DNA from: a virus
Taxonomy: Duplodnaviria > Heunggongvirae > Uroviricota > Caudoviricetes
Direction: 5' to 3' (one strand)
Virus record (IMG/VR): IMGVR_UViG_2731957818_000004
DNA length: 64,000 bases
Shown: positions 3,982 to 62,666 of the stretch, in pieces
How the letters are laid out: every line of letters begins with the position of its first letter
Numbering within the stretch: position 1 is the first letter of the stretch
Program-made: the position numbers and the translations under genes
The notes under the pieces: model-generated
Seen by the model: only the letters and a program-made list of their open reading frames with translations
What the model was told of the DNA's origin: nothing
The model's database searches: none

Positions 3982-4284
3982 ATGAAACACGTTCTACTTC
4001 CACTGATTACCATCCCCGTTTTACTCCTGAGTGCATGTTCATACCGCCCTGTGTCTGTAGCCGATGCAAAACCGGCGCCGCAGGCCAGAGTTTTCAAATA
4101 CCAGACGTCTGCACCAACCACGCTGGTGGTTATGAGGGACAAAGGTATGATAGGTGCGGGCTGTGACGCACTGAACCCTGCTCGTCAGGAACGCGAGACC
4201 ATCACCAAAGCTGGCGAGACGAAAGTCTTCCGGGTGTTCACCAGCAACGCAGGTGACATCGATATCCTACCAACGACACTGTGA
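3982..4284 (+). CDS. Small lipoprotein.
   Basis: Signal peptide plus lipobox LLLSAC. Confidence 0.55.
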   Translation: MKHVLLPLITIPVLLLSACSYRPVSVADAKPAPQARVFKYQTSAPTTLVVMRDKGMIGAGCDALNPARQERETITKAGETKVFRVFTSNAGDIDILPTTL

Positions 4285-4816
4285 CGATATGACGAATATT
4301 ACTGACATCACCTACGGGATTCCTGCAGAAGTCTGGCCGCGCGATTACACCAACGTGGAGAAGGCGCTGATGTTCTGGCGTAAGTCTCTCATTCCTGTAA
4401 GGGTCACGATGGAAGATGGTCAGGTGTTCTGCATGTACGTTCAGGGTCTCATGTCGTCGCGCAACAAAGTCGATCTTTGCCCTGCCCCGTTCGACAAAGA
4501 AAATCGTATAAGGCTCCCACTTGAGCGAATCAGTACGATTGAATCAGGTGTGACAGAAGGCATTGCGCACGATTTCACGGGTCGGACAACGGTACACCCA
4601 GACTATGTGGACAATCGGCCATCTCGCCGTGATTTCTTCAAAATTTGTCGCCAGGCTCATGAGATGCAGAAGTCTATAAGGGTCTACATGGCGGATGGCC
4701 GTGAACTTGAAGGTGTGTCTTCAGGCGTTGACGCTTGTCAGGTCACACTCAGCGTTGGCGATGGTCGGAAGATGGTCGTCATGTTCGATTGGGTTGAACG
4801 AATTTTACCGTTTTAA
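4253..4816 (+). CDS. Hypothetical protein. The start is uncertain; an alternative ATG lies at 4289.
   Basis: ORF adjacent to the lipoprotein gene. No recognisable motifs. Confidence 0.4.
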   Translation: MTSISYQRHCDDMTNITDITYGIPAEVWPRDYTNVEKALMFWRKSLIPVRVTMEDGQVFCMYVQGLMSSRNKVDLCPAPFDKENRIRLPLERISTIESGVTEGIAHDFTGRTTVHPDYVDNRPSRRDFFKICRQAHEMQKSIRVYMADGRELEGVSSGVDACQVTLSVGDGRKMVVMFDWVERILPF

Positions 4817-20544: not shown

Positions 20545-20566
20545 TGATAGGTAAATACTTACTTAT
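20545..20566. promoter_or_regulatory. Class B palindrome GATAGGTAAATACTTACTTATC.
   Basis: Upstream of 19922..20416. Confidence 0.55.
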
Positions 20567-21167
20567 CGTTTTGTGACAAAAATCCAATGTCACGCTTGTG
20601 AGGCATATCAGCTGCGGAGTAGGCGGCGATCTTCGCCAGGCGGTCACACATTTCGTTCTCGCGATGACCGGCATGACCTTTAACCCACTTCCAGCGGACA
20701 TTGTGACGGCTGGCGGCCGCATCGAGACGTTTCCAGAGATCGACGTTTTTGACTGGCTTCTTCTCAGACGTGATCCATCCGTTACGCTTCCAGCCTTTCA
20801 TCCAGAGCGTCATGCCGTTTTTAAGATACTGGCTGTCGGAATGCAGGATCACGTTGCAGGGGTACTTCAGACGCTCCAGCGCAATCAGGGCGCCCATCAT
20901 CTCCATCCGATTGTTGGTCGTGCTGTGGAAACCCTCAGAAAGCTCGCGCTCTTCGCCTCGATACTGGAGAACGATGCCGTAACCGCCCGGTCCGCCCGGA
21001 TTTTTGAGGCAAGAGCCATCACTGAATACTTTTACGGTTTTGAGCTGGGGATTGAACTCGACTACGGGGGTTTTGAAGTTGGTACGGGATTGCTGGTGGG
21101 TTTGGTATCTGGCTTTGGACTTCGTGCGGCAGCCAGTATGTTGCCGGGCTGGGGTCTTGGTCGTCAT
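20559..21167 (-). CDS. rnhA: Ribonuclease HI.
   Basis: [17 protein letters not shown]...TNNRMEMM...LHSDSQY...[16 protein letters not shown] pattern of RNase H1. Confidence 0.85.
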
Positions 21168-37802: not shown

Positions 37803-38447
37803 TTAAATCGTCTCTGAGGGCTTCTGACGCGCTATGTTGATGTCGATCACCCCTGCTTTTGGACGTGGGTCAACGAGATGTAGCTCTTCCTCGCTGTGAT
37901 ATTCGGTGTCGAACTCCCGGTCGAGGTGCTTGACGTAAATAGCCGTCAGCAGGCTGTCGTCTTTGAGAAAGTGTCCGTAAGATTTGCGGATAACTTCGCT
38001 CACCTTCTCGATCTTCTCTCCGCCCATACACAGATGGTTGAACCGGCTGTGTTTACGCAGCATCTCATCCACCGGCCCGGAATAGACCTTGTCCACTTTG
38101 CCAAACCGGATGATCTTTCCAGTATCAGCCTCAACCAGACAAACAAGCTTTCCAGGTTCGACGCGGTCTCGCCATGTCACGCCAGAGCGCAGCGTGTTGA
38201 AGTAGGGCGCGTCTAATCCGATGATCGGTTTGCGAAATGCCAGCAGAGGCACGTATCTGATGCAGCTATTCAGGTGAAAGTGGGCGCCTGCCTCATGTAG
38301 TTTTATGCGCGCTTCGTTAATCGGACATTTGGAAGCAATGCCACACAGTTCACAGAGGAGCTTCTGCTTGTTCAGGTTGGTGTTTGACTCAATGGTGTAG
38401 GAGCCATCCTCAAGACGGCGTACCCAGCGTGTGCGTTTTAGATCCAT
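37803..38447 (-). CDS. Hypothetical Cys-containing protein.
   Basis: 214-aa ORF divergent from repA. Confidence 0.4.
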   Translation of the reverse strand: MDLKRTRWVRRLEDGSYTIESNTNLNKQKLLCELCGIASKCPINEARIKLHEAGAHFHLNSCIRYVPLLAFRKPIIGLDAPYFNTLRSGVTWRDRVEPGKLVCLVEADTGKIIRFGKVDKVYSGPVDEMLRKHSRFNHLCMGGEKIEKVSEVIRKSYGHFLKDDSLLTAIYVKHLDREFDTEYHSEEELHLVDPRPKAGVIDINIARQKPSETI

Positions 38448-38534
38448 GTTCTTAATTCACGTTATTGTTGCTCGCCGCAAACATAGCGCATGAGGTGCGG
38501 CAATGTTCGCAAACGCCTGTTTTAGTTATTCACA

Positions 38535-38543
38535 TTATCCACA
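38535..38543. promoter_or_regulatory. Consensus DnaA box TTATCCACA in an oriR-like region.
   Basis: Exact 9-mer, about 100 bp upstream of the iteron array. Confidence 0.5.
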
Positions 38544-38547
38544 GGGT

Positions 38548-38612
38548 AGATCCTATTAATTAGATCCCGTATAGATCCCTATATAGATCAAAAGAGATCC
38601 CCGATCCTCGCA
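38548..38612. repeat. Cluster of five GATC-containing short repeats (AGATCC) in an AT-rich stretch, analogous to the Dam-methylation cluster of P1 oriR.
   Basis: gtagatcc...tagatccc...tagatccc...tagatca...gagatcccc, seen directly. Confidence 0.5.
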
Positions 38613-38647
38613 GGCCGCGCCACGTCTGGCCTCACGGGGTATTCGCG

Positions 38648-38748
38648 TATGCTGTCAGCGGTAAAAGATATGCTGTCAGCGGTGAGCGATATGCTGCCAT
38701 CTGTTTTTGGTATGCTGCTAACGGCAAATAACGTATGCTGTCAGCGGT
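38648..38748 (+). repeat. Five direct 15-bp iterons (TATGCTGYCAGCGGT) at 21-bp spacing upstream of repA, incC-like.
   Basis: Copies at 38648, 38669, 38690, 38711 and 38734. Confidence 0.85.
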
Positions 38749-38769
38749 TGGAAGCGGAAAGGTGTCAAC

Positions 38770-39870
38770 ATGCCCACTCGAAAGAAAAAAGAAACCAAAA
38801 ACAATGTGTTAGACGACAGTATAGATAATTTTGAAGAAGAATCCCTCGAACTATACACAGGCGATCTTGTTCCAAACAGCAACAATACTGTTCAGCCTAT
38901 AGCGTTGATGAGGCTTGGTTTGTTCGTGCCCACGCTAAAGGGAACAAAGAACAGCAAGCGGAACAGACCTAATGAGATCGACGCCTCAAAAGAACTGGTT
39001 CAGCTGGAGGTTGCTCGTTCAGAAGGGTATTCCGACATCAAGATAACAGGTCCACGCCTGGATATGGATCACGATTTTAAAACGTGGGTCGGCGTCGTGC
39101 GCTCTCTGGCCGAGTACGGGGAGCCGAGTGGCCGCGTCGAGTTGAGCATTACCAAGTTCGCCAAATTCTGCGGCTATCCGTCGTCGCAGATCCGCAAGAC
39201 GCTGCGTGACAGGCTCACCAACAGCCTCCTGAAGATCATGCGCACCACGCTCTCTTTCCAGCGCACGTATGAAGAAAAGAACGTCGACGGCTCGAACAAA
39301 ATCTCGCTCCTGATGGTTCACCTGGTGAACAGCGTCGATTACAACGAGCAAAAAGACTCCATCATCTTTCACGCAGAGCCGAAGCTGGCCGAACTCTATC
39401 GCTTCGACCACAAAGTGCTGCTCCAGCTAAAAGTCATTAACAAGCTGCCGCGCAAAGAGACCGCCCAGGCGCTGTATACGTTCATCGAAAGTCTTCCAGC
39501 CAAACCGGCACCAGTATCGCTGGCAAGGCTTCGAGCCAGACTCAATTTGAGTAGTCGTAACGTCAGCTCGCAGAACCAGACCATCCGCAACGGCTTAAAA
39601 ACGCTGGAGGAATTGGGCTATCTCGAATACAGCGAGATTAAGCGTGGCCGCTCGATTTACATTCAGATCCACAGCCGCAATCCCAAGCTCAAAGCCTCTT
39701 CGGTCAAAGAGGAAATGCCCGCGCTTCCGGATAAGCCGGTCGAGAACACGTCTTCTGGTGTCGATGCAAAACAAAACCTCGTGAACAAAATCACCGAGTT
39801 ATCGCAGAACCTGACGCCCGAAAACATCAAGCTGATCGAGATTCTCTCCAACAGCCTGAAACTCCTTTGA
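38770..39870 (+). CDS. repA: Iteron-binding plasmid replication initiator RepA (P1/pMT1 family).
   Basis: Flanked on both sides by iteron arrays. NSNNTVQPIALMRLG and YTFIESLP..PAP.SLARLRARLNL match the P1 RepA family as I recall it. GGAAAGG RBS. Confidence 0.8.
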   Translation: MPTRKKKETKNNVLDDSIDNFEEESLELYTGDLVPNSNNTVQPIALMRLGLFVPTLKGTKNSKRNRPNEIDASKELVQLEVARSEGYSDIKITGPRLDMDHDFKTWVGVVRSLAEYGEPSGRVELSITKFAKFCGYPSSQIRKTLRDRLTNSLLKIMRTTLSFQRTYEEKNVDGSNKISLLMVHLVNSVDYNEQKDSIIFHAEPKLAELYRFDHKVLLQLKVINKLPRKETAQALYTFIESLPAKPAPVSLARLRARLNLSSRNVSSQNQTIRNGLKTLEELGYLEYSEIKRGRSIYIQIHSRNPKLKASSVKEEMPALPDKPVENTSSGVDAKQNLVNKITELSQNLTPENIKLIEILSNSLKLL

Positions 39871-40347
39871 TATGCTGTCAGCGGTAAAACGTATGCTACC
39901 AGCGGCACAAGATATGCTGTCAGCGGTATTTTTCACATAAAGTATGCTGTCAGCGGCAAAAAGATATGCTGTGAGCGGTAATTTTTAGAAAATGTATGAT
40001 ATCAGCGGGCGATTTTGCTCATTAGCCCGCCGTTATCTGGTCTGCGCGCCTCTTCGATCCCATTTCCCGCGACAACTTCCCCAGTGGTCACTAACCCCGC
40101 AAGCCGCATGAAATAAGGGTTTGCACTCACTAACTTGATTGTTTTTCTCGTCCTGACAGAGCGCCCACAGAGGCGAAAAACGCCGATATGCTGCCAGCGG
40201 TATGAGGTGATGTTTGGATATGCTGTGAGCGGTAAACCTTGTCTTGTGGTCATAACGTATGCTGTCAGCGGTAAATTGAGCGACTAAAAGATATGCTGTC
40301 AGCGGTAAAAAAGAGGAGAATTTAGACAAACGTATGCTGTCAGCGGT
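39871..40347 (+). repeat. incA-like downstream iteron array: 11 copies of the 15-bp iteron in two clusters (6 + 5) separated by about 175 bp.
   Basis: Copies at 39871, 39892, 39913, 39943, 39965, 39995, 40188, 40220, 40257, 40293 and 40333. Confidence 0.85.
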
Positions 40348-40420
40348 AGGCACTATGATGTTGCTTCTACGGGCAAGATAACCACTATGGGAAGTGGTTC
40401 TTCCCATAGTGGATAATGGA

Positions 40421-40636
40421 TCAGATGATTTTCTTCAGCAGCCCCCAGAGTGTCCCGGCCTTCGTCGTGAGCTTACCTGTTTCCGGATCGTACATGCGCC
40501 ATTCGCGACGCTGGTGGACAATGACACCGTCCTCACGCTCCAGACGCTCCAGCACGCCGGGTTGCTTAAACCCTTTGGCACGCCAGTAGCCACTTGTTTT
40601 TTCGATTTCCAGACCTGCCAGTGTAACCGCCATCAA
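40421..40636 (-). CDS. Small hypothetical protein.
   Basis: 71-aa ORF with an ATGA-type overlap with the next gene. Confidence 0.35.
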   Translation of the reverse strand: MMAVTLAGLEIEKTSGYWRAKGFKQPGVLERLEREDGVIVHQRREWRMYDPETGKLTTKAGTLWGLLKKII

Positions 40637-43581: not shown

Positions 43582-44658
43582 TTACGCTTCTTCTGTCTCT
43601 GCTGGGGACGACTCTTTCGCTCGCCGTTCGTCTATCGCCTGGAGTGCTGCGATGATTTCCGGGAGTGGCTTCTCGCGGTACATCTCGACGATCTGCGATT
43701 TGGTGTATTTCTTATCGCCAATTTCCACACGCCCGCTGGCGTTCTTGGGCAGGTATCCTTCCTCCAGCATGTACTCAACCAGCGATTCGATGACGTCCAG
43801 CCCGCGAGTCGGGTCGAAGTAGAATTTCCATGAGCATTTGCCAAACGGAGGCGCGACTTTGTTTTTAATGCACTCGGCGCCAACGTCCTGTCCGATCTTC
43901 TCTTTGCCATCCTTCATAACGGATGCGCCCAGACGGATGCGCACCGACGCGTAGAACTTCGGAGAGTCGCCACCTGGAGACGTCGTCGGATCGCCAAACA
44001 TCACGCCAATTTTGGTACGCACCTGGTTCAAGAAGATGATGCACGCGTTGTACTTACGCGCCCAAAGCGCCAGAGTAGGGAAGTTCGCACTCGTCGCGCG
44101 CGCCAGCGCCGTGTTGTCGTTCATGTTCAGCTGATCTTTGTCCTTCGCAGTGCCTTCTGCCATCTTGTCGAACTTCTCAGCCTTCGAGTTCGGAACCATC
44201 GACGCCAGAGAGTCGGCAACGATGCAGATAGGGGCTGTTTCCGGGATAAGCTCTTCGTCGCGCACCAGCTTGAGGATTGTGCCGATCAGCTCGACGGAAT
44301 CTTCGAAGGTATCCGGCTGTTTGTAGACCCACTGACCGTCGTCTTCGTCGGCGTTCAGTCCGTTCGCCACCGCCAGACCAACGTCGAAACTGTTTTCGTG
44401 GTCAAGGAATACGGCCAGACCATCCTGTTTCTGTGCTGACACCATTGCAGCCGTGGCTAAGAACGTTTTTCCTGCACTCGGAGGCCCAAATACCTCAACG
44501 ATGCGCCCACATGGGAAGCCGCCGTCGTAACGTCCGGAAATGGCTTTGTTCAGTGGAGGGAAACCGGAGTCAATCCAGTGGGAGACCTTCTGGATCTCGT
44601 CATTGCTGCCGATTTTATTTTTCAGCGCCAGTGCCAGTGCGGATTTGCCTTTTGCCAT
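43582..44658 (-). CDS. RecA/UvsX-like recombinase.
   Basis: GRIVEVFGPPSAGKTFLATAAM RecA-type Walker A region. 358 aa. Confidence 0.65.
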   Translation of the reverse strand: MAKGKSALALALKNKIGSNDEIQKVSHWIDSGFPPLNKAISGRYDGGFPCGRIVEVFGPPSAGKTFLATAAMVSAQKQDGLAVFLDHENSFDVGLAVANGLNADEDDGQWVYKQPDTFEDSVELIGTILKLVRDEELIPETAPICIVADSLASMVPNSKAEKFDKMAEGTAKDKDQLNMNDNTALARATSANFPTLALWARKYNACIIFLNQVRTKIGVMFGDPTTSPGGDSPKFYASVRIRLGASVMKDGKEKIGQDVGAECIKNKVAPPFGKCSWKFYFDPTRGLDVIESLVEYMLEEGYLPKNASGRVEIGDKKYTKSQIVEMYREKPLPEIIAALQAIDERRAKESSPAETEEA

Positions 44659-44660
44659 GA

Positions 44661-44927
44661 TTAGGCTCCTTTTGATTCGTTGATTCGCTTCGAAGCAGCG
44701 GCTTCGTCAAACTTGATTGCGTCGTGGTTCAGGTGTTTGGCGACGCGAGCGATGATCTTCACGACCTGCTCGCTGACCAGCGCGAACTCACGCTCAGTAG
44801 CAGAAATGCCAGCAGCGCCCAGAATGTTCGGCAGCGCCACCACAGCGTGCTCGCCGTGGCAGAAGACAATCTCTTTAGCCAGCATGGTTGGCGTAGTTGC
44901 CCCGCCATTAATGATGGATTTCAGCAT
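44661..44927 (-). CDS. Hypothetical protein.
   Basis: 88-aa ORF. Confidence 0.35.
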   Translation of the reverse strand: MLKSIINGGATTPTMLAKEIVFCHGEHAVVALPNILGAAGISATEREFALVSEQVVKIIARVAKHLNHDAIKFDEAAASKRINESKGA

Positions 44928-45871
44928 CAGCAGTACCTCTCAAATGGCAGAACAAACACTTCCAGATCTTCCAGAAACGACCGGAAGTTCAGCTCGTAAC
45001 ACATCTGTTCGAAGGCATTCATGTCGCGTGCGCCTTTAATCGACTCGATTTCGCTGGGTGGGAATTTTGTGTCGATAAGGTTCATCAGCATCATGTTGCG
45101 CTTAAAGGCTTCGAGCATCCGGCAGCCCGTCTTCTCGTTGAAGGCATTCTTTGCCAGCTTGTTGAATGCCGTCTTATAGCGACCTTTGTTGATGACAATG
45201 GAGCCGTCGTTAATGCCGCGTACCATTGCGGCCACGCTTCCCCATTCATGAAGCAGCTCTTTCGCGCCACCATCACCAATGCCACCGACGCCTTTGATGT
45301 TGTCCGAGTTATCGCCCTGCAATGCTTTCGCTTCCAGAAACGCTCGTGGCGTTGGCAGACCGGTCAGCTCTGCGAACTGTTCGAAGTTCACCTGCTTGTG
45401 CTTGGCATCTTCACGCAGGCTTACCCAGCTCACATTCTCGCGAACCAGCTGGAGCCAGTCGCCATCGCCAGTCAGCAGGTAGATGTGATCGACGGTCGGC
45501 TGCGGAGCCAGGCGAGAGACCAGCATTCCAGCCAGGTCGTCCGCTTCTGCGTCCTTTGCAATGAGTTGGTTAACGCCCAGCGCGGTCATCATTTTCAAGA
45601 TGTACGGCTTCTGGATGGCAAAGCCTTCTTTCATCTTCTTCATATCCGGGTCGTCATCGCGATTCGCTTTGTACTCCGGGTAGAAGTCGCGACGTTTGTC
45701 GCTGAATCCATCCCACAAGATCATTGGGCGGGCATGGAGAATTGAGGCGTAACGACGAACGTTCTTCACGAAGCCAAAAGCCGCCTGAACTTCCATCTCG
45801 CCGTTGTGTAATTTGTCGGATTGCTGGTGGTAATAGCCCAGGCTGTTACCGTCCACAAAGAGATAATTCAC
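44927..45871 (-). CDS. 5'-3' exonuclease / flap endonuclease (FEN family, T4 RNase H / Pol I N-domain-like). Start moved to the GTG at 45871.
   Basis: LFVDGNSLGYY, EADDLAG, LTGDGDW, GVGGIG helix-hairpin-helix. GGAAGGAG RBS 7 nt before the GTG. The track N-terminus runs through a terminator hairpin. Confidence 0.7.
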   Translation of the reverse strand: MNYLFVDGNSLGYYHQQSDKLHNGEMEVQAAFGFVKNVRRYASILHARPMILWDGFSDKRRDFYPEYKANRDDDPDMKKMKEGFAIQKPYILKMMTALGVNQLIAKDAEADDLAGMLVSRLAPQPTVDHIYLLTGDGDWLQLVRENVSWVSLREDAKHKQVNFEQFAELTGLPTPRAFLEAKALQGDNSDNIKGVGGIGDGGAKELLHEWGSVAAMVRGINDGSIVINKGRYKTAFNKLAKNAFNEKTGCRMLEAFKRNMMLMNLIDTKFPPSEIESIKGARDMNAFEQMCYELNFRSFLEDLEVFVLPFERYC

Positions 45872-45887
45872 CGGTACACTCCTTCCA

Positions 45888-45917
45888 AAAAGTAAGGCGT
45901 CCGTAGACGCCTTACTG
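45888..45917 (-). terminator. Intrinsic terminator after the gp32-like gene.
   Basis: AAGGCGTC-CGTA-GACGCCTT followed by a T-run on the minus strand. Confidence 0.55.
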
Positions 45918-45931
45918 GTCACGTTATGGGA

Positions 45932-46960
45932 TTACAGAGCGTCCAGTTCAGCCAGCAGGTCGTCGAGACCTTCGTCAGCTGGTGCAGATGCAGCGGCAGC
46001 AGATGCTGAAGCACTTGCAGATGCGGCGGCTTCCGGAGCTTTAACTTCTTCCGGTTTAGTTTCTGGCTTGAACTCAGCTTCAGCGGCACGCAGGATCTCT
46101 TCATCAACCAGGCTGGTGGACTCTGGAGCCGGAGTGTGTGCTGTAGCGACAGCAGCTGCACCTTCCGTATGACCAGTGATAGAGCCAAAGCCTGGCAGTT
46201 CAGCAGCAGCTGATTTTGCAGCGGAAGAAATGGCCGGAGAGGACATTGTTGCTGCCGGAGCCGCGATACCAATCAGACGACCCATAGTGCGAGCCGTAGA
46301 CAGCAGACGGGTTTCGTCAGCCTGGTTCGCGTATGCGATCAGATCGTGTTGGGTAGTCCAGAGCTTCTCAGGAACGTCGCCTTTGTAGACTTTACGTTTC
46401 GGGGATACGTCGTACTTGGTGTCACGACCGGAACCGGTACGCTTAATCAGGAACGCATAGCCTTCTTCTTTGCTCAGTGGGTTGCCGATATCATCCGCAA
46501 TATCTTCGGACATCACTTTGCAGATATCGTCGAAGACCGTAGACGGCAGCTCAATCAGCTGGCATTTCTCTGCGTCCGCAAAGTCTTCGCGCGCAGACAG
46601 AACACCGTTGACCAGATAACGCGGTGTAGCACGCATACTGTTAATGCGCTCTTCCATCGCTTTGTTGCCCTTAAAGCGAGCACGACCTTCCATAACCATC
46701 TCACACAGCTGGCAAGCGTGGCCGTGGGTGTGCTGTTCGCAGATGTAGGCGGTGGTTACATCTTTGCCTTCCTCATTCTGATGCTTAACGTAGTGCATAC
46801 CGAAAGTCTGGAAGAACACGCCATTCGGGTCGTCCTTGTTCGGAAAAATGCGCAGATAGTTATTGCCGTCTTTCAGACGGGTCAAATCAACGTTATTGCC
46901 ACGTTTAGAAGCAATATCGCCACGGGTCTTGTTAAGCAGATCAAGTAATGACTTAGACAT
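45932..46960 (-). CDS. T4 gp32-like single-stranded DNA-binding protein with a Zn-binding module and an acidic C-terminus.
   Basis: YLRIFPNKDDPNG..F...G.HY....YICEQHTHGHACQLCE resembles the gp32 Zn site. C-terminal ADEGLDDLLAELDAL. Confidence 0.6.
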   Translation of the reverse strand: MSKSLLDLLNKTRGDIASKRGNNVDLTRLKDGNNYLRIFPNKDDPNGVFFQTFGMHYVKHQNEEGKDVTTAYICEQHTHGHACQLCEMVMEGRARFKGNKAMEERINSMRATPRYLVNGVLSAREDFADAEKCQLIELPSTVFDDICKVMSEDIADDIGNPLSKEEGYAFLIKRTGSGRDTKYDVSPKRKVYKGDVPEKLWTTQHDLIAYANQADETRLLSTARTMGRLIGIAAPAATMSSPAISSAAKSAAAELPGFGSITGHTEGAAAVATAHTPAPESTSLVDEEILRAAEAEFKPETKPEEVKAPEAAASASASASAAAASAPADEGLDDLLAELDAL

Positions 46961-47511: not shown

Positions 47512-47731
47512 TTTGATAGGTTCCAGCTTATTTCTTTATATCAATTTTATCATGAAAGAAATGAAGGATGGAGCTTATAGAAGGAAGAAGTTAGGGGGCA
47601 GGGTAGGTAAGTTGATGAAAACAGGGAGTGTTCTGATAATCTATAGCCGTTTTCTGCGGCCGTAGACGTCAGAAAATAGACAGTGTTGACACGCGCTCAC
47701 ACTATACCTATCATAATGACATCGGAGGAAA

Positions 47732-47983
47732 ATGAAATCACATCCGAATAAGCATATTCAAGAGGCCATTGAATACGCGTTGAGTAAAGGCTGGGTTTGG
47801 GTTCCAGCAGGTAAGTCAGCACATTGCTTCTGCAAGCTGCGCTGCGGCGATAAATCAGGTGAACATACAAGTCACCACAGAAGTGTATGGTCGACTCCAG
47901 ATGTACCGGAGCACCATGCCACGCAAATCAGGCAAGCGGTCGACCAGTGTGGCCGTATCAAAAGCCAGATGAGCAAAAAATAG
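47732..47983 (+). CDS. HicA-like mRNA interferase toxin candidate.
   Basis: LSKGWVWVPAGKSAH...HRSV resembles the HicA GW...GSHH core. Upstream of a HicB-like ORF. Confidence 0.35.
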   Translation: MKSHPNKHIQEAIEYALSKGWVWVPAGKSAHCFCKLRCGDKSGEHTSHHRSVWSTPDVPEHHATQIRQAVDQCGRIKSQMSKK

Positions 47984-48055
47984 TAGTTAGTGGCGGTTTT
48001 GGCCGCCATTTGTTCCAAAGGTACATTAATACTTCACTTTAGATAAAGAGGTTTT

Positions 48056-48648: not shown

Positions 48649-49092
48649 TTATGCGACTTTCTTACCAAAAATGTTGGATAGTGTGACTCTGGTCTGGCGT
48701 TTCAACCTGTACTGTCTCACATCACCAATCTTGTTCACTTCCATAAACTCTTTGGCCACCTTCAGCACCAGCCGATTGCGGAACACTTTGAACGCCTCCA
48801 GCTGTTCCTCTGGGTTATCCGATTCGTAAATCTCCAGCAGATACTGGCACGCCTTCGGATCTTGCGTTTTAAGCGCCAGCGCTCTGGCACATTTACGCAG
48901 ACGACTGACTTTATCGGCACCATCCAGCCCGGCGAACGCCAGCGCCAGATCTAACGTGACCGGGCAGTCGATGATTTCCCAGAACTGCGACCGCATGGTG
49001 GCCGCAACAGCTTTATCCTGAAAATCCGCTGGGATAGCCGCCAGCGCTTGTGCAATCTTCTGTGCCTCGTTCATGGTGTTCTCTTTATTCAT
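48649..49092 (-). CDS. Hypothetical protein.
   Basis: 147-aa ORF with an ATGA overlap with the dnaE C-part. Confidence 0.45.
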   Translation of the reverse strand: MNKENTMNEAQKIAQALAAIPADFQDKAVAATMRSQFWEIIDCPVTLDLALAFAGLDGADKVSRLRKCARALALKTQDPKACQYLLEIYESDNPEEQLEAFKVFRNRLVLKVAKEFMEVNKIGDVRQYRLKRQTRVTLSNIFGKKVA

Positions 49093-50258
49093 TTGCTAAT
49101 AGTCTCCGCTACCTCTGCCAGAATTGCTTCCAGCTTTTCGCCTTCTTCTGGGCGAAAGTACAAAATGTTTGGGTTAAATCCGTAGAAAACGGTCACATCC
49201 AGCTCCGGCAGATACTCTTTGCGTCCAACCAGGTCGGATGGTTTGTTCTTGTTGTTGAAGAGTGACGTCGCCCGACTGCCACACGTCAGCACATAGGTCG
49301 GACGCACCAGATTGATCTCTTCACGCATAAAGTCGGTGAACTGGCCGATCTCGTCTTTGGTGTAGTCCTTCTCTTTGTCCTTCACCTTTTTGCACACGCC
49401 GGTGACGTAGAGATCGCCCATGCGCAGATCGCCTGCAGTAAGCAACTTCGCTTTAAAGTCGTCGTAGCCGTTCTCCATGAAGTAACCGGTACGCCCATCA
49501 TTGCCGTTCGCGTTGTCCAGAATGACCATGATTTTCGGCTTAATGCCAATGCTTGGGCGGATCAGGTCGTCTCCCAGACCCATTTCAGCCGCCATGCGAG
49601 TCATCAGTACATTCACTTCAGCAGAGCGCTTAGGGTTCATCTCGAACGGTCGAGAGGCTTTTACAGCGTCGATCACCAGATTGCCCATCAACTCTGCCTG
49701 GTCGCGCAGTCGTTCCGGATCTGTCGCTGGCAGACTGCCAGGCTCAATCGATGCGAACGCACCTACTTTTTGCAGTGACTCGCGTACCCGGCTGTTACAC
49801 GCACGCTTCTCGACCGCTTCCTCAAATTGCTCAAGTGACTCGAATTTGCCGCCAACTTTCTCACGCGCTCTCATGATGGCCTGGCAACCATTCTCAGAGC
49901 AGCCTTTTACAGCAGAGAATGGCGCATACAGAACCTGGCTGCCGTCTTCCAGCGTGCGGATCTCAATGCGATTAGACGATATGTTCACATCTGGTGGCAG
50001 TACGCGAATGCCATAGGTCAGCGCATCCTTCACAAGCCCCTGATGTTTGTCCTCGCCCAGAATGGTGAGCGCAGCAGCAAAAAACTCAGCCGGGTAGTGC
50101 GTTTTTAGCCACATGGACTGATAGCTGATTAAAGAATAAGCAACAGAGTGCGATTTGTTGAAGGCATACGCGCCGGATTTCTCAAACATATTCCAGATTT
50201 CTTCGGCTCGTTCGTGCGTCAGGCCATTGCTCTCTTCAACAACACCGATAATTTTCAT
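49089..50258 (-). CDS. dnaE: DNA polymerase III alpha (DnaE)-like, C-terminal fragment.
   Basis: AFNKSHSVAYSLISYQSMWLKTHYPAEFFAA, the DnaE fingers motif GFNKSHSAAYAL..YQT.WLKAHYPAEF. The ATG overlaps the HNH ORF stop as ATGA. Confidence 0.8.
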   Translation of the reverse strand: MKIIGVVEESNGLTHERAEEIWNMFEKSGAYAFNKSHSVAYSLISYQSMWLKTHYPAEFFAAALTILGEDKHQGLVKDALTYGIRVLPPDVNISSNRIEIRTLEDGSQVLYAPFSAVKGCSENGCQAIMRAREKVGGKFESLEQFEEAVEKRACNSRVRESLQKVGAFASIEPGSLPATDPERLRDQAELMGNLVIDAVKASRPFEMNPKRSAEVNVLMTRMAAEMGLGDDLIRPSIGIKPKIMVILDNANGNDGRTGYFMENGYDDFKAKLLTAGDLRMGDLYVTGVCKKVKDKEKDYTKDEIGQFTDFMREEINLVRPTYVLTCGSRATSLFNNKNKPSDLVGRKEYLPELDVTVFYGFNPNILYFRPEEGEKLEAILAEVAETISK

Positions 50259-50989
50259 GCAGTCACCTCATCAATCTTCATGAACTTATACCCATTGGAC
50301 ACCAGCCAGTCCCGTTGGCGCACCCAGCTCCATACCTCTTCATGCATTTCGCTATGCAGACGAATGTGAGCGTCTTCTGGAAGTGCCACCAGATTCCCAG
50401 GGACGTTATCTAGCGTGTCGCGGTTAATGTGGTGGACATGTTCATCGTCACGTAGCTCCCGACCGAGATGTTCTTTCGCTATCAACCGATGAACGTATTC
50501 GTATTGCGAAACGCCATTGTTACCAACCAGCTGCATCATGTAGCCGTTGGTTTTTATGATGACGCCACCTTTGTAGTTGTTCGCTTCTTCTCCGGTCTTT
50601 CCGCGTTTGGCAGCAGCCAGCTTTTCCTTCGTCTCCAGGCGGATTGTTCTGCCGGTCAGCTTTTTCGAAACGGTGGCCACTCGCTCATCGGTATCGGCAC
50701 GCAGCCCTGCATTCCACGAGGTTTTCCCATACATAGGGTTGCCAGCGCCAGTCCGGGCTTCGGAGAGTCGCTTTATGCGTTCGTCATTATTTTTGTTTTT
50801 GCCACGATTCCAGGCTGGGGTAGCGGAGATCCGCGCGTTTCCGCGCCTGATCCCCCATTTGGCTAATAAGCGATCAATGTTTGCCTTGCTGCAACCAGCT
50901 TCGGCGGCAATGTCTTCTTTTCTCATCAGGTCAACCATGTAACGCTGACGTAACCATTCTTCTGTGATTTTGTACTTCGTACCCGGCAT
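50255..50989 (-). CDS. HNH homing endonuclease inserted within dnaE.
   Basis: C-terminal EHVHHINRD...N HNH motif and N-terminal NUMOD-like helix-turn-helix repeats. Its own class A promoter lies at 51004-51040. Confidence 0.7.
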   Translation of the reverse strand: MPGTKYKITEEWLRQRYMVDLMRKEDIAAEAGCSKANIDRLLAKWGIRRGNARISATPAWNRGKNKNNDERIKRLSEARTGAGNPMYGKTSWNAGLRADTDERVATVSKKLTGRTIRLETKEKLAAAKRGKTGEEANNYKGGVIIKTNGYMMQLVGNNGVSQYEYVHRLIAKEHLGRELRDDEHVHHINRDTLDNVPGNLVALPEDAHIRLHSEMHEEVWSWVRQRDWLVSNGYKFMKIDEVTA

Positions 50990-51003
50990 TTCTAAGACTC
51001 ACT

Positions 51004-51040
51004 AAACAAATTGTTTTCTTATCCTATAAATTAATTATCA
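51004..51040 (-). promoter_or_regulatory. Class A promoter for the HNH endonuclease. Its -10 GATAAT overlaps the stop codon of the dnaE N-fragment.
   Basis: gataattaatttataggataagaaaacaatttgttt on the minus strand. Confidence 0.55.
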
Positions 51041-53401
51041 AATATCGAAGCTCGTTATGTCGGCATTTATTGCCATTGCTTCGGCATAAGTGCGACGCTC
51101 ACCATCAGCGCAAAGCAAACGTGCCGTTTTATGAATTTTCCGCGTAGAACCATCATCAAGTGACACTGTCACCCAGCCTTTCTCCGCTCGCTTAATGAAG
51201 TCGCCACCAATGGATTTCATTTTTTCCATATCTTTTTTCCCGATCGCTTTCCTGACCGAGTCTGCTTCCGCCATTGAGAACCCCGCCAGGATTCGCGTAG
51301 CAGCCATGATTTGCTCCTGATAAATCAGTACGCCGTTTGTATCGCGAGATATATCGTCTAGCATTGGGTGCAAGGAATGTGGTGGCATGAAGCCTTTGGC
51401 CACAGAAACGTAGTCATCCAACATGCCTGACTGGATGGGGCCGGGGCGGAAGAGCGCGGTGGTCGCGACAACCGTTTTAAAGCTCATTGGCTCGATACCG
51501 CTACCCAGATCTCTAAGCAGCTTGCGCATTGGGCCAGATTCCAGCTGGAAGACGCCCTGTGTGTAGCCAGCTGCGAAACCATCCAGAACTTTGCGGTCGT
51601 CGAGTGGAATGGCGTCGAGGTTGATATCGTTGCCAGTGCTCTCTTTGATGTAACGCTTTGCGCTATCCAGCAGATCGAGCGTGGCCAGACCGAGAACGTC
51701 CAGCTTAATCAGCCCCATCGCCTCGCAGTAACGTTTATCGAACGCAATACAGCGAGCATTGCCACGCAGCTCGACGGGCGTGCGCTCTACCAGTGGAACG
51801 CCAGCGACGATCATCCCCGCAGCGTGGCGACCAAAACCACGCATCAGGCTTTGCAGCTTACACGCCGCTTTGAACGCTTCCGGGTATTTCGTGGCGTATT
51901 TGTCCAGGCTGGCCAGTTGCTCGCGCAGCTCTTCCAGCGACAGGCTATCGTCCTCCAGATTCTTGAACTCTTTGGATACCGCCATATCCGCAGCGTCGAC
52001 ACCGTAAATACGCGCAGTGTCACGCAGCGCCGAAGCAGCGCCCAGATAGGTGAAGTTCGGAATACCGGCAACGTAATCTTCGCCATAGCGTTCATTCAGA
52101 TACTCGATCACCTCATGACGACGTGCCTGGCTGAAGTCCAGATCCGCATCCGGCAAGTCGAGACGTTCAGGGTTAATGAAACGCTCAAACAGAAGACCGT
52201 GACGGATAGGATCAACGTTGGTTATGCCTATGCACCACGCCACCAGAGACCCGGCAGAGGAACCACGACCTGGCCCGACAGGAATGCCAGTTTCACGGCT
52301 GTGATTCATCAGGTCGCGCACCATCAGGAAGTAGCCACAGAAGCCCAAGCGGGTCAGCGTGTCCATTTCGTACTTCAGGCGATCAACATACACACGGTGC
52401 TCAGAAGCCGGTGGTGTGTAGCCAAATTCTTTGGTAGTAAGACGCTTGCGTAGCCCCGCGACAGCCAGCTTCATCAGCGTTGCAGGCTCGTCGTCTGCCA
52501 TCTTGGGCAGTGCTGGTGGCAATTCATGCCAGCGCCATGTGCAGGCTTCAATAATGGTGTCCTGCGTTGTTGAGGCCATTGCAGCTGTTACCGGCACATC
52601 CATTCGAACGGAGAAGGCTTTCAGCGCTTCAAGGAGATGGCGGCGACCATTAACGGCGTTATCTCGCTGGTGGGGAATACGCAGACGATGCGGCTGGTCG
52701 ATTTTGATGTTGTTCGTAACCATGTGCGCAATGTCTTTAATGTCAGCGTCGTCGACCGCTTCGTAATAAGCGGGATAGAACGCCACTGGCTCTATTTTCA
52801 GTGCGCTCGCCACTTTCATCGCCCGGACGTTAATCTGGTCGTAGAATGGGGTAGGGTGCGGATAAACCACGCTGTAGAAGTTATCGCGTCCTCCAGCTGT
52901 CACCAGCGTCCCGATAATCTTTGCGAAGTCCCGGCGCTGGAATACACTGCCAATGTCGGACGTCAGCAGGATGATGTTGCCTTTGGCATATGCGGCCGCC
53001 AGCTGGTCAAGTGCCAGACGCGGGACAAAGTAGAATTGCTCGCGCTTGTTCGCTAAGGTCATCAGTTCGCACACGTCGCGATAACCTTGCTCATTCTTTA
53101 TCAGTGCCGTGAAGCAGTAGCTGCGATCACGCACCAATGATTCCATACATCCCCCTGACTCTTTCGCCAGGCGGGCGCGGTGCTCGTATGTCGGATCGTC
53201 GACCACATTCAGCTTAACACCACAAATAACCGCCATGTCGTCGCCAGCGGCACGCTGCAGGGGGATCACACTGGCAATGTTCATGCTGTCAGCGGAAATG
53301 ACAGCGGTGTAGCCAGCGTCTCTCGCGATTCTCACCGCGTTTTCTGCTTTTAGAGCCGACTCTCCCAGGGAGAAGTCAGTTCTGACCATCAGAGCCTTCA
53401 T
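51038..53401 (-). CDS. dnaE: DNA polymerase III alpha (DnaE)-like, N-terminal fragment (PHP-like, palm, thumb).
   Basis: LLFERFINPERLDLPDADLDFSQARRHEVIEYL matches the DnaE palm catalytic region FERFLNPERVSMPDFDVDF...R..VI.Y. About 44 non-homologous residues precede the stop. Confidence 0.8.
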   Translation of the reverse strand: MKALMVRTDFSLGESALKAENAVRIARDAGYTAVISADSMNIASVIPLQRAAGDDMAVICGVKLNVVDDPTYEHRARLAKESGGCMESLVRDRSYCFTALIKNEQGYRDVCELMTLANKREQFYFVPRLALDQLAAAYAKGNIILLTSDIGSVFQRRDFAKIIGTLVTAGGRDNFYSVVYPHPTPFYDQINVRAMKVASALKIEPVAFYPAYYEAVDDADIKDIAHMVTNNIKIDQPHRLRIPHQRDNAVNGRRHLLEALKAFSVRMDVPVTAAMASTTQDTIIEACTWRWHELPPALPKMADDEPATLMKLAVAGLRKRLTTKEFGYTPPASEHRVYVDRLKYEMDTLTRLGFCGYFLMVRDLMNHSRETGIPVGPGRGSSAGSLVAWCIGITNVDPIRHGLLFERFINPERLDLPDADLDFSQARRHEVIEYLNERYGEDYVAGIPNFTYLGAASALRDTARIYGVDAADMAVSKEFKNLEDDSLSLEELREQLASLDKYATKYPEAFKAACKLQSLMRGFGRHAAGMIVAGVPLVERTPVELRGNARCIAFDKRYCEAMGLIKLDVLGLATLDLLDSAKRYIKESTGNDINLDAIPLDDRKVLDGFAAGYTQGVFQLESGPMRKLLRDLGSGIEPMSFKTVVATTALFRPGPIQSGMLDDYVSVAKGFMPPHSLHPMLDDISRDTNGVLIYQEQIMAATRILAGFSMAEADSVRKAIGKKDMEKMKSIGGDFIKRAEKGWVTVSLDDGSTRKIHKTARLLCADGERRTYAEAMAINADITSFDI

Positions 53402-57876: not shown

Positions 57877-58263
57877 ATGGCTACCAACGAAACAGAGATC
57901 AAACAAGGTCGCTACGCAGCTTACATTGACTCGTTAATCACAATCTCGCCTAAAAGTCAGGCTACCATTGCCAAAGAGGTTGGGTACAAGAACGCCAACA
58001 ATCTCTCTCTCATCAAAAGCGGCAAAATCCCACTTCCAGTAGATAAGGTTCGAGCATTAGCCGAAGCGCTGGATGCAGATCCGGTTCGACTGATGCTGAT
58101 GGTTCTGGAAGAACGTCATCCTGAGCTGCTTGAGTTTTTTCGCGAAGAGGGCACTGCACCTCTCTCCGCTGATGAAAAACTCGTTCTAGAAGCGTTCCGT
58201 AACCGTTTTGACGGTCAACAAGGTGCGTCAGAAAAGGTGGTTGAGGCCATCAAGTCACTGTGA
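57877..58263 (+). CDS. XRE-family helix-turn-helix transcriptional regulator.
   Basis: QATIAKEVGYKNANNLSLIKSGKIPLPVDKVRALAEAL HTH pattern. Convergent with the recombinase gene. Confidence 0.55.
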   Translation: MATNETEIKQGRYAAYIDSLITISPKSQATIAKEVGYKNANNLSLIKSGKIPLPVDKVRALAEALDADPVRLMLMVLEERHPELLEFFREEGTAPLSADEKLVLEAFRNRFDGQQGASEKVVEAIKSL

Positions 58264-59361
58264 GAAATTTACACGAATAAGCTCGGTGGCTAGACGATCT
58301 CCCTTGAATTTGTGGTCTATCTCGTCTAAGTCTGTTTGATTAACGATGGATGCGATGTACGTTGAGAAGTTATTCAAGGCGTCTCGCATCTCATCCATAT
58401 AATCGTGGCGGTCATAGACGCGATCTATCCCTTCAAGACTGTGGTTCATAATCTTACGAGCCACCTCCTGACTGATCCCCAGAGCCGGAAAGTAACTGCG
58501 CGCGGTTCTTCGCAGATCGCGCGGGGTGAACGGCTCTAACTCCATCATTTCAGGACGCTCCAGAATCCTGCGCAATGACTGCGCTATGGCCACCTTAGAC
58601 ATTGGCACATCCTCGCCGCGCTTCTTGTTCGACGGGACAAGCCATTGGCTCCCCTTTCCGTACTCGAACAGTTTCTCAACACATTGCCGCATTAAGGGGC
58701 TTAACGGGAGACTGTGCTGTCGGCCCGATTTGTTGCGGGCGCCTTGATTCCATACATCACGCTGAAGGTTGAACTCACTCTTCTTCGCGCGGAGCACTTC
58801 ATCAGGGCGTCTGGCAGCTACAAGACAGAGTCTGGCAGCCCATTTCGTCCCTTCGCAAACGTTGAAGTAGTCCCAGACGTTCCAGAACACCCACACTTCG
58901 GCATCTGTCAGCTTCCGTTCCCGCGGCATGGGCTTAGCGCCCCCGGCGACTTTGTTTAGAGAGATGTCATTCAGCGGAGAGGTTTCAATTACACCCTGAA
59001 ATGCACACCAGCCAAGAAACTGCTTCATCAGCGAGAACACACGTCTGCCCTGGACAATCTTGCCTTCCAGGATCAGCGGGTTAACCAGCTGGTTGACCAG
59101 CACCCTATTTATGTCACTTACCTTAACATCAGCAATGTGTGGCATAACATGTATCAAAACACAATGGACGGCTATCTCCGGTCGACGTCTCGTTATCAAT
59201 AAAGATAAGCGAGTGAATAACATGAATGCCGATGAGAACCGCATGTCCCCATCCAGGTTAATGGTCGATACCGCCGACAGGCCAGCTGCCCATTCGAGAT
59301 AAGCAATGGCCTCGCGTGAGGTGTTTTCGGCTGCGCGTGCTTTATCAAAGGTGTTTTTCAT
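58255..59361 (-). CDS. Tyrosine site-specific recombinase (integrase / resolvase family).
   Basis: R (AARRPDE), DLRRTARS, MNHS and catalytic Y in DRVYDRHDY. A LexA-box-like site lies 22-41 nt upstream. Confidence 0.65.
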   Translation of the reverse strand: MKNTFDKARAAENTSREAIAYLEWAAGLSAVSTINLDGDMRFSSAFMLFTRLSLLITRRRPEIAVHCVLIHVMPHIADVKVSDINRVLVNQLVNPLILEGKIVQGRRVFSLMKQFLGWCAFQGVIETSPLNDISLNKVAGGAKPMPRERKLTDAEVWVFWNVWDYFNVCEGTKWAARLCLVAARRPDEVLRAKKSEFNLQRDVWNQGARNKSGRQHSLPLSPLMRQCVEKLFEYGKGSQWLVPSNKKRGEDVPMSKVAIAQSLRRILERPEMMELEPFTPRDLRRTARSYFPALGISQEVARKIMNHSLEGIDRVYDRHDYMDEMRDALNNFSTYIASIVNQTDLDEIDHKFKGDRLATELIRVNFSQ

Positions 59362-62591: not shown

Positions 62592-62666
62592 TGGCGATGG
62601 TGGGTGGACTCGAACCACCGACCAGTTGATTAACAGTCAACCGCTCTACCACTGAGCTACACCATC
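62592..62666 (-). tRNA. tRNA-Asn (anticodon GUU) with an encoded CCA.
   Basis: Manual cloverleaf: acceptor GATGGTG/CACCATC (7 perfect bp), D-arm GCTC-AGTGGTA-GAGC, anticodon stem GTTGA/TCAAC with loop CTGTTAA, T-arm GGTGG-TTCGAGT-CCACC, discriminator G, CCA. Confidence 0.8.

Follow-up and report, generated by a model that had tools for sequence, protein, structure and literature searches.

What kind of replicon lies between positions 38526 and 40347 of this virus sequence, and does it belong to a phage, to a plasmid, or to an element that can live as both? The question arises from 64,000 nucleotides of the IMG/VR record IMGVR_UViG_2731957818_000004 (Caudoviricetes), a stretch referred to at its full length as the window, in which DnaA boxes, GATC-bearing heptamers, the initiator gene repA and arrays of short repeats (iterons) lie among phage genes. 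The original prediction, drawn from the letters alone, had recognized the oriR/incC/repA/incA layout of the P1 plasmid prophage and had proposed an SSU5/pHCM2-like phage-plasmid; both proposals hold. The locus is very probably the plasmid-prophage replicon of an SSU5-like phage-plasmid, of the theta type and controlled by iterons, within the P1 RepA/RepFIB family. It is homologous to the P1 replicon, and not simply built on a P1-like plan, because its RepA is 42% identical to that of P1 and P7 over residues 10-308 (E 5e-65 by tblastn; 45% in alignment), the DNA left of its origin iterons is 81-82% identical to P1 oriR over 112-118 bp, and its features follow the order and spacing annotated in P1. 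The P1 anatomy was taken from the curated record NC_005856, read in the same orientation, where an 18-bp DnaA site and five Dam sites precede five incC iterons (spacing 21/21/21/22) that contain the repA promoter, followed by repA and by incA, which begins at the repA stop codon with a spacing of 30-41 bp. The anatomy of the window's replicon, the homology of its RepA and origin DNA to P1 and RepFIB, its intactness, its conservation and its discordance with the backbone are observed directly.

The initiator gene, repA, occupies 38770-39870 on the plus strand and encodes 366 amino acids, predicted by homology (Pfam, PHROG, tblastn and alignment) to be an iteron-binding initiator of the P1 RepA/RepFIB RepA family. 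Its product matches the Pfam family PF01051, Rep3_N (WH1), with E 7.8e-9 and 36.5 bits against a gathering cut-off of 22.4, and phrog_775 with 8e-132, while a scan of RepA against NCBIfam matched no family. The classical RepFIB RepA proteins carried by thousands of F-type plasmids are 45-48% identical to it by tblastn (E ~1e-85) and 54% in alignment, and the RepA proteins of Klebsiella and E. coli SSU5-like phage-plasmids, annotated as "RepFIB replication protein A" or "RepB family", reach 84-90% by tblastn. Comparison with SSU5 and its relatives, as the original prediction had suggested, places the SSU5 protein in the same RepA family (45% by tblastn, 49% in the comparison of flank and replicon proteins). 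A C-terminal tail is common to the RepA of this replicon, of RepFIB and of SSU5 and is absent from P1 RepA; RepFIB is the nearest named family. The gene is intact: its product aligns with its relatives from first to last residue in a five-way alignment with no frameshift, and GenBank CP078107 annotates the same 366-aa open reading frame (ORF). Decay of repA into a pseudogene is thereby ruled out.

To the left of the iterons lies a module that host factors would read. Two tandem 9-bp DnaA boxes form the outer origin edge at 38526-38543 on the plus strand (TTATTCACA at 38526 and TTATCCACA at 38535); both match the consensus exactly and align with the 18-bp DnaA site of P1, and only four exact matches to the consensus TTATNCACA exist in the whole window, counting both strands. 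Next to them, six GATC-bearing heptamers (TAGATCC three times, TAGATCA, GAGATCC and CCGATCC) span 38547-38609, plus strand, with 42% GC. Their GATC sites, at 38549, 38563, 38574, 38586, 38596 and 38603, fall within 58 bp and form the densest such cluster in the window; at least six GATC in 60 bp was reached in 9 of 5000 random placements. This block is presumed, on the P1 model, to be the Dam-methylated, SeqA-sensitive region of origin opening. A GC-rich spacer (38610-38647, plus strand, 73% GC), delimited by sequence comparison and alignment with P1 oriR, completes the module, and over its first 21 nt, GCAGGCCGCGCCACGTCTGGC, it matches P1 oriR at every position. All six heptamer positions have P1 counterparts, column for column, P1 having lost the GATC in one of them, and the same DnaA/GATC module was found in Klebsiella, E. 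coli, Salmonella, SSU5 and F-type RepFIB origins. The original prediction had seen a consensus DnaA box and a GATC cluster here, correctly in kind but short in number, with one box instead of two and five heptamers instead of six.

The iterons themselves stand out clearly from the rest of the window. Sites matching TATGCTGTCAGCGGT with at most 3 mismatches number 18 in the 64 kb against 1.67 expected, a count that none of 100 shuffles reached; 15 of the 18 lie within 38648-40347, all on the plus strand, and a sixteenth copy with 4 mismatches sits at 38711. All 16 iterons of the replicon are direct repeats, in which conservation in fact extends over about 19 nt, RTATGCTGTCAGCGGTAAA. An isolated iteron-like site, CATGCTGTCAGCGGA (2 mismatches), was also noticed at 53282-53296, within the ORF for the N-terminal part of DnaE; a uniform model predicts about 0.12 sites of this kind, and it may be there by chance. 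Five origin iterons (incC-like), located by pattern search at 38648-38748 on the plus strand, start at 38648, 38669, 38690, 38711 and 38734. Five had been predicted at a uniform 21-bp spacing; the number stands, but the spacing is 21/21/21/23, and this count and spacing are invariant across 8 replicons of this iteron type from 6 genera. If the P1 arrangement holds, these iterons should contain the repA promoter.

At the sequence level the iteron is unrelated to the P1 19-mer, as predicted: the best cyclic match is 11/21, which is not significant (p = 0.25), and the match to the RepFIB iteron, 12/21, is borderline (p ~0.05). The iterons nevertheless hold a position and register homologous to those of P1 despite the divergence in sequence. 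The part of the origin read by host factors is thus conserved and the specificity-determining part has diverged, because the left module retains 81-82% identity with P1 while the iterons show no significant similarity.

Eleven further iterons follow repA in the predicted 6 + 5 arrangement, which a pattern search bore out. Since they have the same sequence as the origin iterons, they are predicted to be RepA sites. The proximal array, six direct iterons regarded as incA-like, putative control sites, spans 39871-40009 on the plus strand, with starts at 39871, 39892, 39913, 39943, 39965 and 39995 (spacing 21/21/30/22/30); its first iteron lies 1 nt past the repA stop codon in all 8 replicons compared. 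An iteron-free spacer of 177 bp (40010-40186), delimited by comparison of lineage plasmids, separates it from the distal array, and throughout the five plasmids of the window's lineage the step from one array to the other measures 192 bp. Within this spacer, 36 bp at 40076-40111 share 86% identity with the sequence that follows the Klebsiella array; an Rfam scan of the whole window found nothing in the replicon or in the 177-bp spacer, its sole match being a transfer RNA (tRNA). The distal array, found by the same search, comprises five direct iterons three to four helical turns apart at 40187-40347, plus strand, with starts at 40187, 40219, 40258, 40292 and 40333 (spacing 32/39/34/41 bp).

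The arrays differ in how they vary among near-identical plasmids. The distal array is constant at 5 copies in the lineage, with the same spacing save for 1-bp shifts in Cronobacter malonaticus, and the origin array is likewise constant within the lineage, whereas the proximal array varies by whole units, with 4 copies in Enterobacter, 5 in pCS1, 6 in the window and in C. malonaticus, and 7 in pGK1025B_1. This pattern is the one expected of an essential origin array combined with a dosage-type control array that changes by unequal recombination.

Beyond the arrays no parAB was found, in line with the prediction that P1-like parAB would be absent; small minus-strand ORFs follow instead. The right edge of the replicon cassette is marked at 40379-40415 by a terminator-like hairpin with a 13-bp stem, detected as an inverted repeat and in a minus-strand terminator scan. 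It lies 5 nt beyond the stop codon of a convergent 71-aa gene and, as RNA, folds with a computed energy of -23.2 kcal/mol; the hairpin found at this position in other lineages is a different one. Its arms, TAACCACTATGGGAAG and TATCCACTATGGGAAG, resemble SSU5-type iterons, and the minus-strand arm stands at the place of the last SSU5 iteron. That the arms are relics of displaced SSU5-type iterons is speculation: they score 16.6 and 13.6 bits on the iteron matrix, against 22.7-30.9 for real iterons and up to 17.1 for shuffled sequences.

The surroundings of the replicon identify the element that carries it. The replicon region is 97-99.9% identical to circular, non-mobilizable plasmids, mostly of 100-111 kb, from Citrobacter, Enterobacter and Cronobacter; the hosts include Citrobacter amalonaticus (pCA_RSHH22_1), the Enterobacter cloacae complex, Cronobacter sakazakii (pCS1, pH322_1, pGK1025B_1 and pCsa plasmids) and Cronobacter malonaticus. 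Nine flanking proteins are 92-99% identical to those of phage SSU5, and the DNA on either side of the replicon is 95-97.5% identical to it. The closest complete record, NZ_CP096906.1, is circular, measures 110,958 bp and carries tail, capsid and terminase genes at 4.5-32 kb, in a part that lies outside the window. Judged by these similarities, the window comes from a pCS1-like lineage of circular plasmids of about 110 kb within the SSU5 supergroup of phage-plasmids, which agrees with the attribution first proposed. The pCS1-like Cronobacter plasmids have been described as SSU5 phage-plasmids whose repA genes are 'sub-groups of IncF1B' (PMC9169379), and among typed phage-plasmids the majority are IncFIB, chiefly in the SSU5 supercommunity (PMC7969092). 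SSU5 itself is known as a phage, pHCM2 and the pCS1-type elements as plasmids (PMC7969092, PMC9169379), and the SSU5 (IncFIB) replication genes are included in typing tools (bioRxiv 10.1101/2025.09.12.675607).

Whether the element still leads both lives is a separate matter. The replicon might work in what is now only a plasmid, one that carries a decayed SSU5-type prophage, so that the dual lifestyle fails. Cronobacter relatives span 51.6-110 kb, which indicates deletions, and phage-plasmids have been defined as molecules that 'strictly behave like plasmids' (PMC9169379). Against such decay, the backbone proteins are those nearly identical to an infective phage, the closest complete plasmid has an apparently full tail, capsid and terminase set, and in close relatives PHASTER rates the SSU5-like region as 'intact' (PMC9169379). 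Moreover, PhiR41_1, a sister element whose replicon is of the same type (89.8% RepA identity), has been deposited as a phage hosted by E. coli K-12 MG1655. Loss of the phage lifestyle is accordingly unlikely, though of all the rival explanations it retains the most weight.

The assignment to a P1/RepFIB-type replicon must also be set against the observations that weigh on the other side. For the two-winged-helix fold that would be expected of RepA, as in RepE and pi, a sequence search of the Protein Data Bank returned nothing with the protein up to E = 1, nor with a 5-sequence family profile up to E = 10, and a single-sequence AlphaFold2 model of RepA was unusable (mean pLDDT 39.9, pTM 0.25). 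The control region departs from P1, whose incA has 9 copies, 3 direct and 6 inverted, where the window has 11, all direct. No sigma-70-like promoter emerged from a consensus scan of 38400-40500, which leaves the autoregulation of repA argued by analogy only and makes it the weakest of the inferred steps, but the experimentally known repA promoter of P1, TTGCTA / TAGGAT, is itself far from consensus. MOB-suite typing, consulted via PLSDB, gives the window's lineage a single replicon type, rep_cluster_763, and not IncFIB, which it assigns to a Klebsiella relative with 84-87% RepA identity. Finally, RefSeq-derived gene tables show no repA coding sequence (CDS) in NZ_CP096906, NZ_CP091490, NZ_CP012254 or NZ_CP141994; in view of the annotated gene in CP078107, this is an annotation or table gap in the PLSDB/RefSeq-derived data. 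The missing CDS and the rep_cluster_763 label together may cause the replicon to be overlooked in surveys.

Could the replicon be a vestige, or an auxiliary such as the weak FIB replicon of F, with the prophage maintained by another replicon, for example through a phage DnaB-like helicase and the polymerase III (Pol III) alpha subunit at another origin? The FIB replicon of F is near-silent owing to a weak ribosome-binding site and start codon (PMC11983097), the plasmid carries much replication machinery of its own, and the missing consensus promoter would fit. In the window, however, repA is preceded by a good Shine-Dalgarno sequence, AAAGG, and starts with ATG, both conserved with the Klebsiella homologue, and the gene is intact, 100% identical to an ORF in one close plasmid, NZ_CP091490, and 366 aa long in five plasmids of the lineage. 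Strict conservation across 8 replicons holds for all five origin iterons and for the host-factor module. The complete relative has no second plasmid-type Rep annotated, and typing finds a single rep cluster. A vestigial role is thus very improbable.

Least likely of all, and by a narrow step, is that the downstream arrays serve some role other than copy control, as a second origin or as a centromere for a distant ParA-type system: parAB are not adjacent, the two arrays differ in spacing (21-30 against 32-41 bp) around a conserved 177-bp spacer, and SSU5 itself has a duplicated origin module, but the downstream arrays have no DnaA box, GATC cluster or AT-rich block near them, begin at the repA stop codon as P1 incA does, vary by whole units in the manner of a dosage-type control element, and correspond to the block that FIB experiments showed to be an inhibitory and incompatibility element (PMC11983097).

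With the iteron-controlled plasmid-prophage replicon as the preferred reading, its working can be sketched, each step being inferred from the homologous replicons of P1 and FIB, which have been dissected by experiment. To initiate replication, RepA monomers would bind the five phased origin iterons while host DnaA binds the two outer boxes, and the duplex would open between these two sets of sites, at the GATC heptamers, a Dam-methylated block that is richer in AT. Once hemimethylated, this block would be sequestered by SeqA, limiting re-initiation. In P1, work by Chattoraj, Abeles, Austin and Brendler reportedly showed that the heptamers need Dam methylation for origin function and undergo SeqA sequestration, and that RepA is activated by the chaperones DnaK, DnaJ and GrpE; by homology, the same would be expected here. 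By occupying the iterons nearest the promoter, RepA would repress repA, and the eleven downstream iterons would keep the copy number low in two ways, by titrating RepA and by handcuffing with the origin iterons through RepA. Such handcuffing could occur in cis and between sister copies, and the downstream iterons would then be the main incompatibility determinant. In FIB, the upstream iterons are part of the origin, whereas the downstream block is by itself enough to displace a FIB plasmid already resident in the cell, a result that supports handcuffing between the two arrays (PMC11983097).

Partition is not encoded beside the replicon. In the closest complete plasmid, NZ_CP096906.1, a 221-aa ParA/MipZ-type ATPase and a 117-aa partner ORF lie at 837-1861, in an operon about 40 kb from the replicon and outside the window. 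Additionally, positions 2228-3025 of that plasmid, also outside the window, hold an addiction pair of the TacA/TacT (TacA/GNAT) type. Within the window, two consecutive proteins with ParB N-terminal domains, at 651-1352 and 1319-2017 on the minus strand, lie beside an ABC-type ATPase-like ORF at 16-654; they may be candidates for a role in partition, or in nuclease activity or DNA processing. A tyrosine recombinase at 58255-59361 on the minus strand might resolve plasmid dimers.

The relation between the replicon and its backbone is discordant. Against SSU5, the nine flanking proteins share 92-99% and RepA 49% identity; against the Klebsiella record OW966982, RepA shares 87% and the flanks only 58-84%. 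At the DNA level, identity to SSU5 stands at 95% until 37723, falls to 82% across the upstream gene and the host-factor module (37803-38617), drops to about 67% in patches within repA, and returns to 97.5% from exactly 40421, a sharp right breakpoint directly past the terminator-like hairpin. Because RepA and its flanks show opposite identities to SSU5 and Klebsiella, the replicon can be regarded as a module exchanged or replaced on the phage backbone. A tentative reading, plausible though somewhat short of probable, is that the 1.8 kb or so from 38618 to 40420 form an incompatibility cassette open to exchange, and that recombination swapped the SSU5-type RepA and iterons for those of the Klebsiella/E. 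coli type on an SSU5-identical backbone. The left boundary of such a cassette would be the host-factor module conserved in P1, RepFIB, SSU5 and this lineage, and the right boundary would be the terminator hairpin. Plasmid-type genes are more variable than phage genes in phage-plasmids (PMC7969092), in agreement with an exchange of this kind. The SSU5-type cassette is common, occurring in 220 plasmids at 90% identity or more, and all its matches include 89 Enterobacter and 23 Citrobacter records. If the exchange is real, two near-identical phage-plasmids could co-reside in these two genera, and the unit-wise variation of the proximal array between 4 and 7 copies could tune copy number between hosts.

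The remaining genes of the window include the lytic replication toolkit that had been claimed for it. A RecA-like recombinase (43582-44658), a 5'-3' exonuclease of the flap endonuclease (FEN) type (44927-45922), a gp32-type single-stranded DNA-binding protein (SSB; 45932-46960) and an RNase H (20559-21167) are all present, as is a Pol III alpha gene (dnaE) that is split by an HNH endonuclease gene (51038-53401, 50255-50989 and 49089-50258). The N-terminal piece of DnaE, 787 aa long, holds the PHP domain, the polymerase core and the fingers; the C-terminal piece, 389 aa long, holds HHH_6; and the gene between them encodes a 244-aa HNH/NUMOD3 homing-endonuclease-like protein. An ORF at 4253-4816 on the plus strand gives a strong Pfam match to Flag1_repress (E 4.6e-96), the FljA-type repressor of phase-1 flagellin; on the strength of this match, the phage-plasmid might influence host flagellar phase or expression. 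A tRNA-Asn(GTT) gene lies at 62592-62666 on the minus strand. Compared with the Citrobacter record, the window is mosaic (47554-48046 and 50168-51150), some segments being only 93% identical and two short stretches failing to align.

Much of the framework for these observations is already published, namely the SSU5-type phage-plasmids, the IncFIB-family replicons, the control logic of P1 and RepFIB, and the plasmid lineage itself (PMC7969092, PMC9169379). The iteron anatomy of the lineage is not described in PMC7969092, bioRxiv 10.1101/2025.09.12.675607, PMC9169379 or PMC6906374, the last of which treats P1-like plasmids. What is added here is the discordance of the cassette, the invariance of the origin iterons in 8 replicons and the variation of the proximal array between 4 and 7 copies; the iteron map is a detail, not a discovery, and its importance for discovery is small, the replicon family and the lineage being established. 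Its practical value is modest and consists of an exact iteron-level map of a sub-lineage replicon whose repA CDS is omitted from RefSeq-derived tables, together with a defined, predicted incompatibility determinant usable for typing or for plasmid-curing cassettes. It also illustrates cleanly how a replicon cassette is exchanged while the phage backbone around it stays conserved, and it bears on how related phage-plasmids, some of them with resistance genes, might avoid incompatibility.

Among known systems, P1 and P7 provide the reference for the layout. They share with the window a homologous RepA, the origin-left module, five origin iterons about 21 bp apart, and a control array that starts at the repA stop codon with spacings of three to four helical turns, and all of these are maintenance replicons of phage-plasmids. 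Apart from the composition of incA, P1 differs in that its RepA is shorter, at 286 aa, with no C-terminal tail, parA-parB-parS lie directly downstream of its replicon, one of its six heptamer positions has no GATC, and its backbone is that of an unrelated myovirus. The window's replicon is therefore distinct from the P1 maintenance region (IncY) in the strict sense, from which it is separated by iteron specificity, by the lack of inverted incA copies and by the lack of adjacent parA-parB-parS.

RepFIB, as found in F, P307, pO157 and other IncF plasmids, likewise places rep between upstream origin iterons and downstream control iterons, with a DnaA box and a GATC cluster on the left. A single consensus DnaA box, and not two, is present in the F-type origin that was compared, these replicons are located on conjugative plasmids and not in a phage genome, and their iteron specificity differs from that of the window, so that the two would probably be compatible. 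Mini-F RepFIA (ori2-repE-incC) and Rep_3 plasmids (R6K pi, pPS10 RepA) follow the same control logic, in which initiator monomers act at the origin iterons, the initiator represses the gene that encodes it and a downstream block handcuffs the origin (PMC11983097). The window's RepA falls in Rep3_N with them, but the RepE, pi and pPS10 RepA structures give no sequence-level match to it, even by family profile.

The SSU5/pHCM2 replicons occupy the same locus between the same flanking genes (92-99%) and have a RepA of the same family and the same DnaA/GATC module. They differ in that their RepA is only 45-49% identical, their iterons are of another type, CTATCCACTGTAGTGAG, and in SSU5 the origin module is duplicated and the downstream array contains iterons of either orientation. 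The SSU5 duplication is a tandem one of the origin-left module (DnaA box, GATC heptamers and iterons) upstream of repA, at 2816-3035 and 3200-3440 of the compared SSU5 sequence; several GATC sites of the second copy have degenerated to GAACC or GACCC.

Closest of all, ahead of RepFIB, SSU5/pHCM2 and P1/P7, stand the Klebsiella and E. coli replicons of the SSU5 supergroup (among them K. pneumoniae OW966982 P2, Klebsiella phage pJN2-26 and Escherichia phage PhiR41_1), which are typed IncFIB. Their flanking backbone proteins are only 58-84% identical to those of the window, and their downstream arrays total 9 copies, split 4+5 or 5+4, and differ in spacer, in spacing and in the terminal hairpin. 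They share with it, however, the iteron core TATGCTGTCAGCGGT, the five origin iterons at 21/21/21/23, the module of DnaA boxes, GATC heptamers and GC-rich spacer, a first downstream iteron 1 nt past the stop codon, and the same place in the phage backbone.

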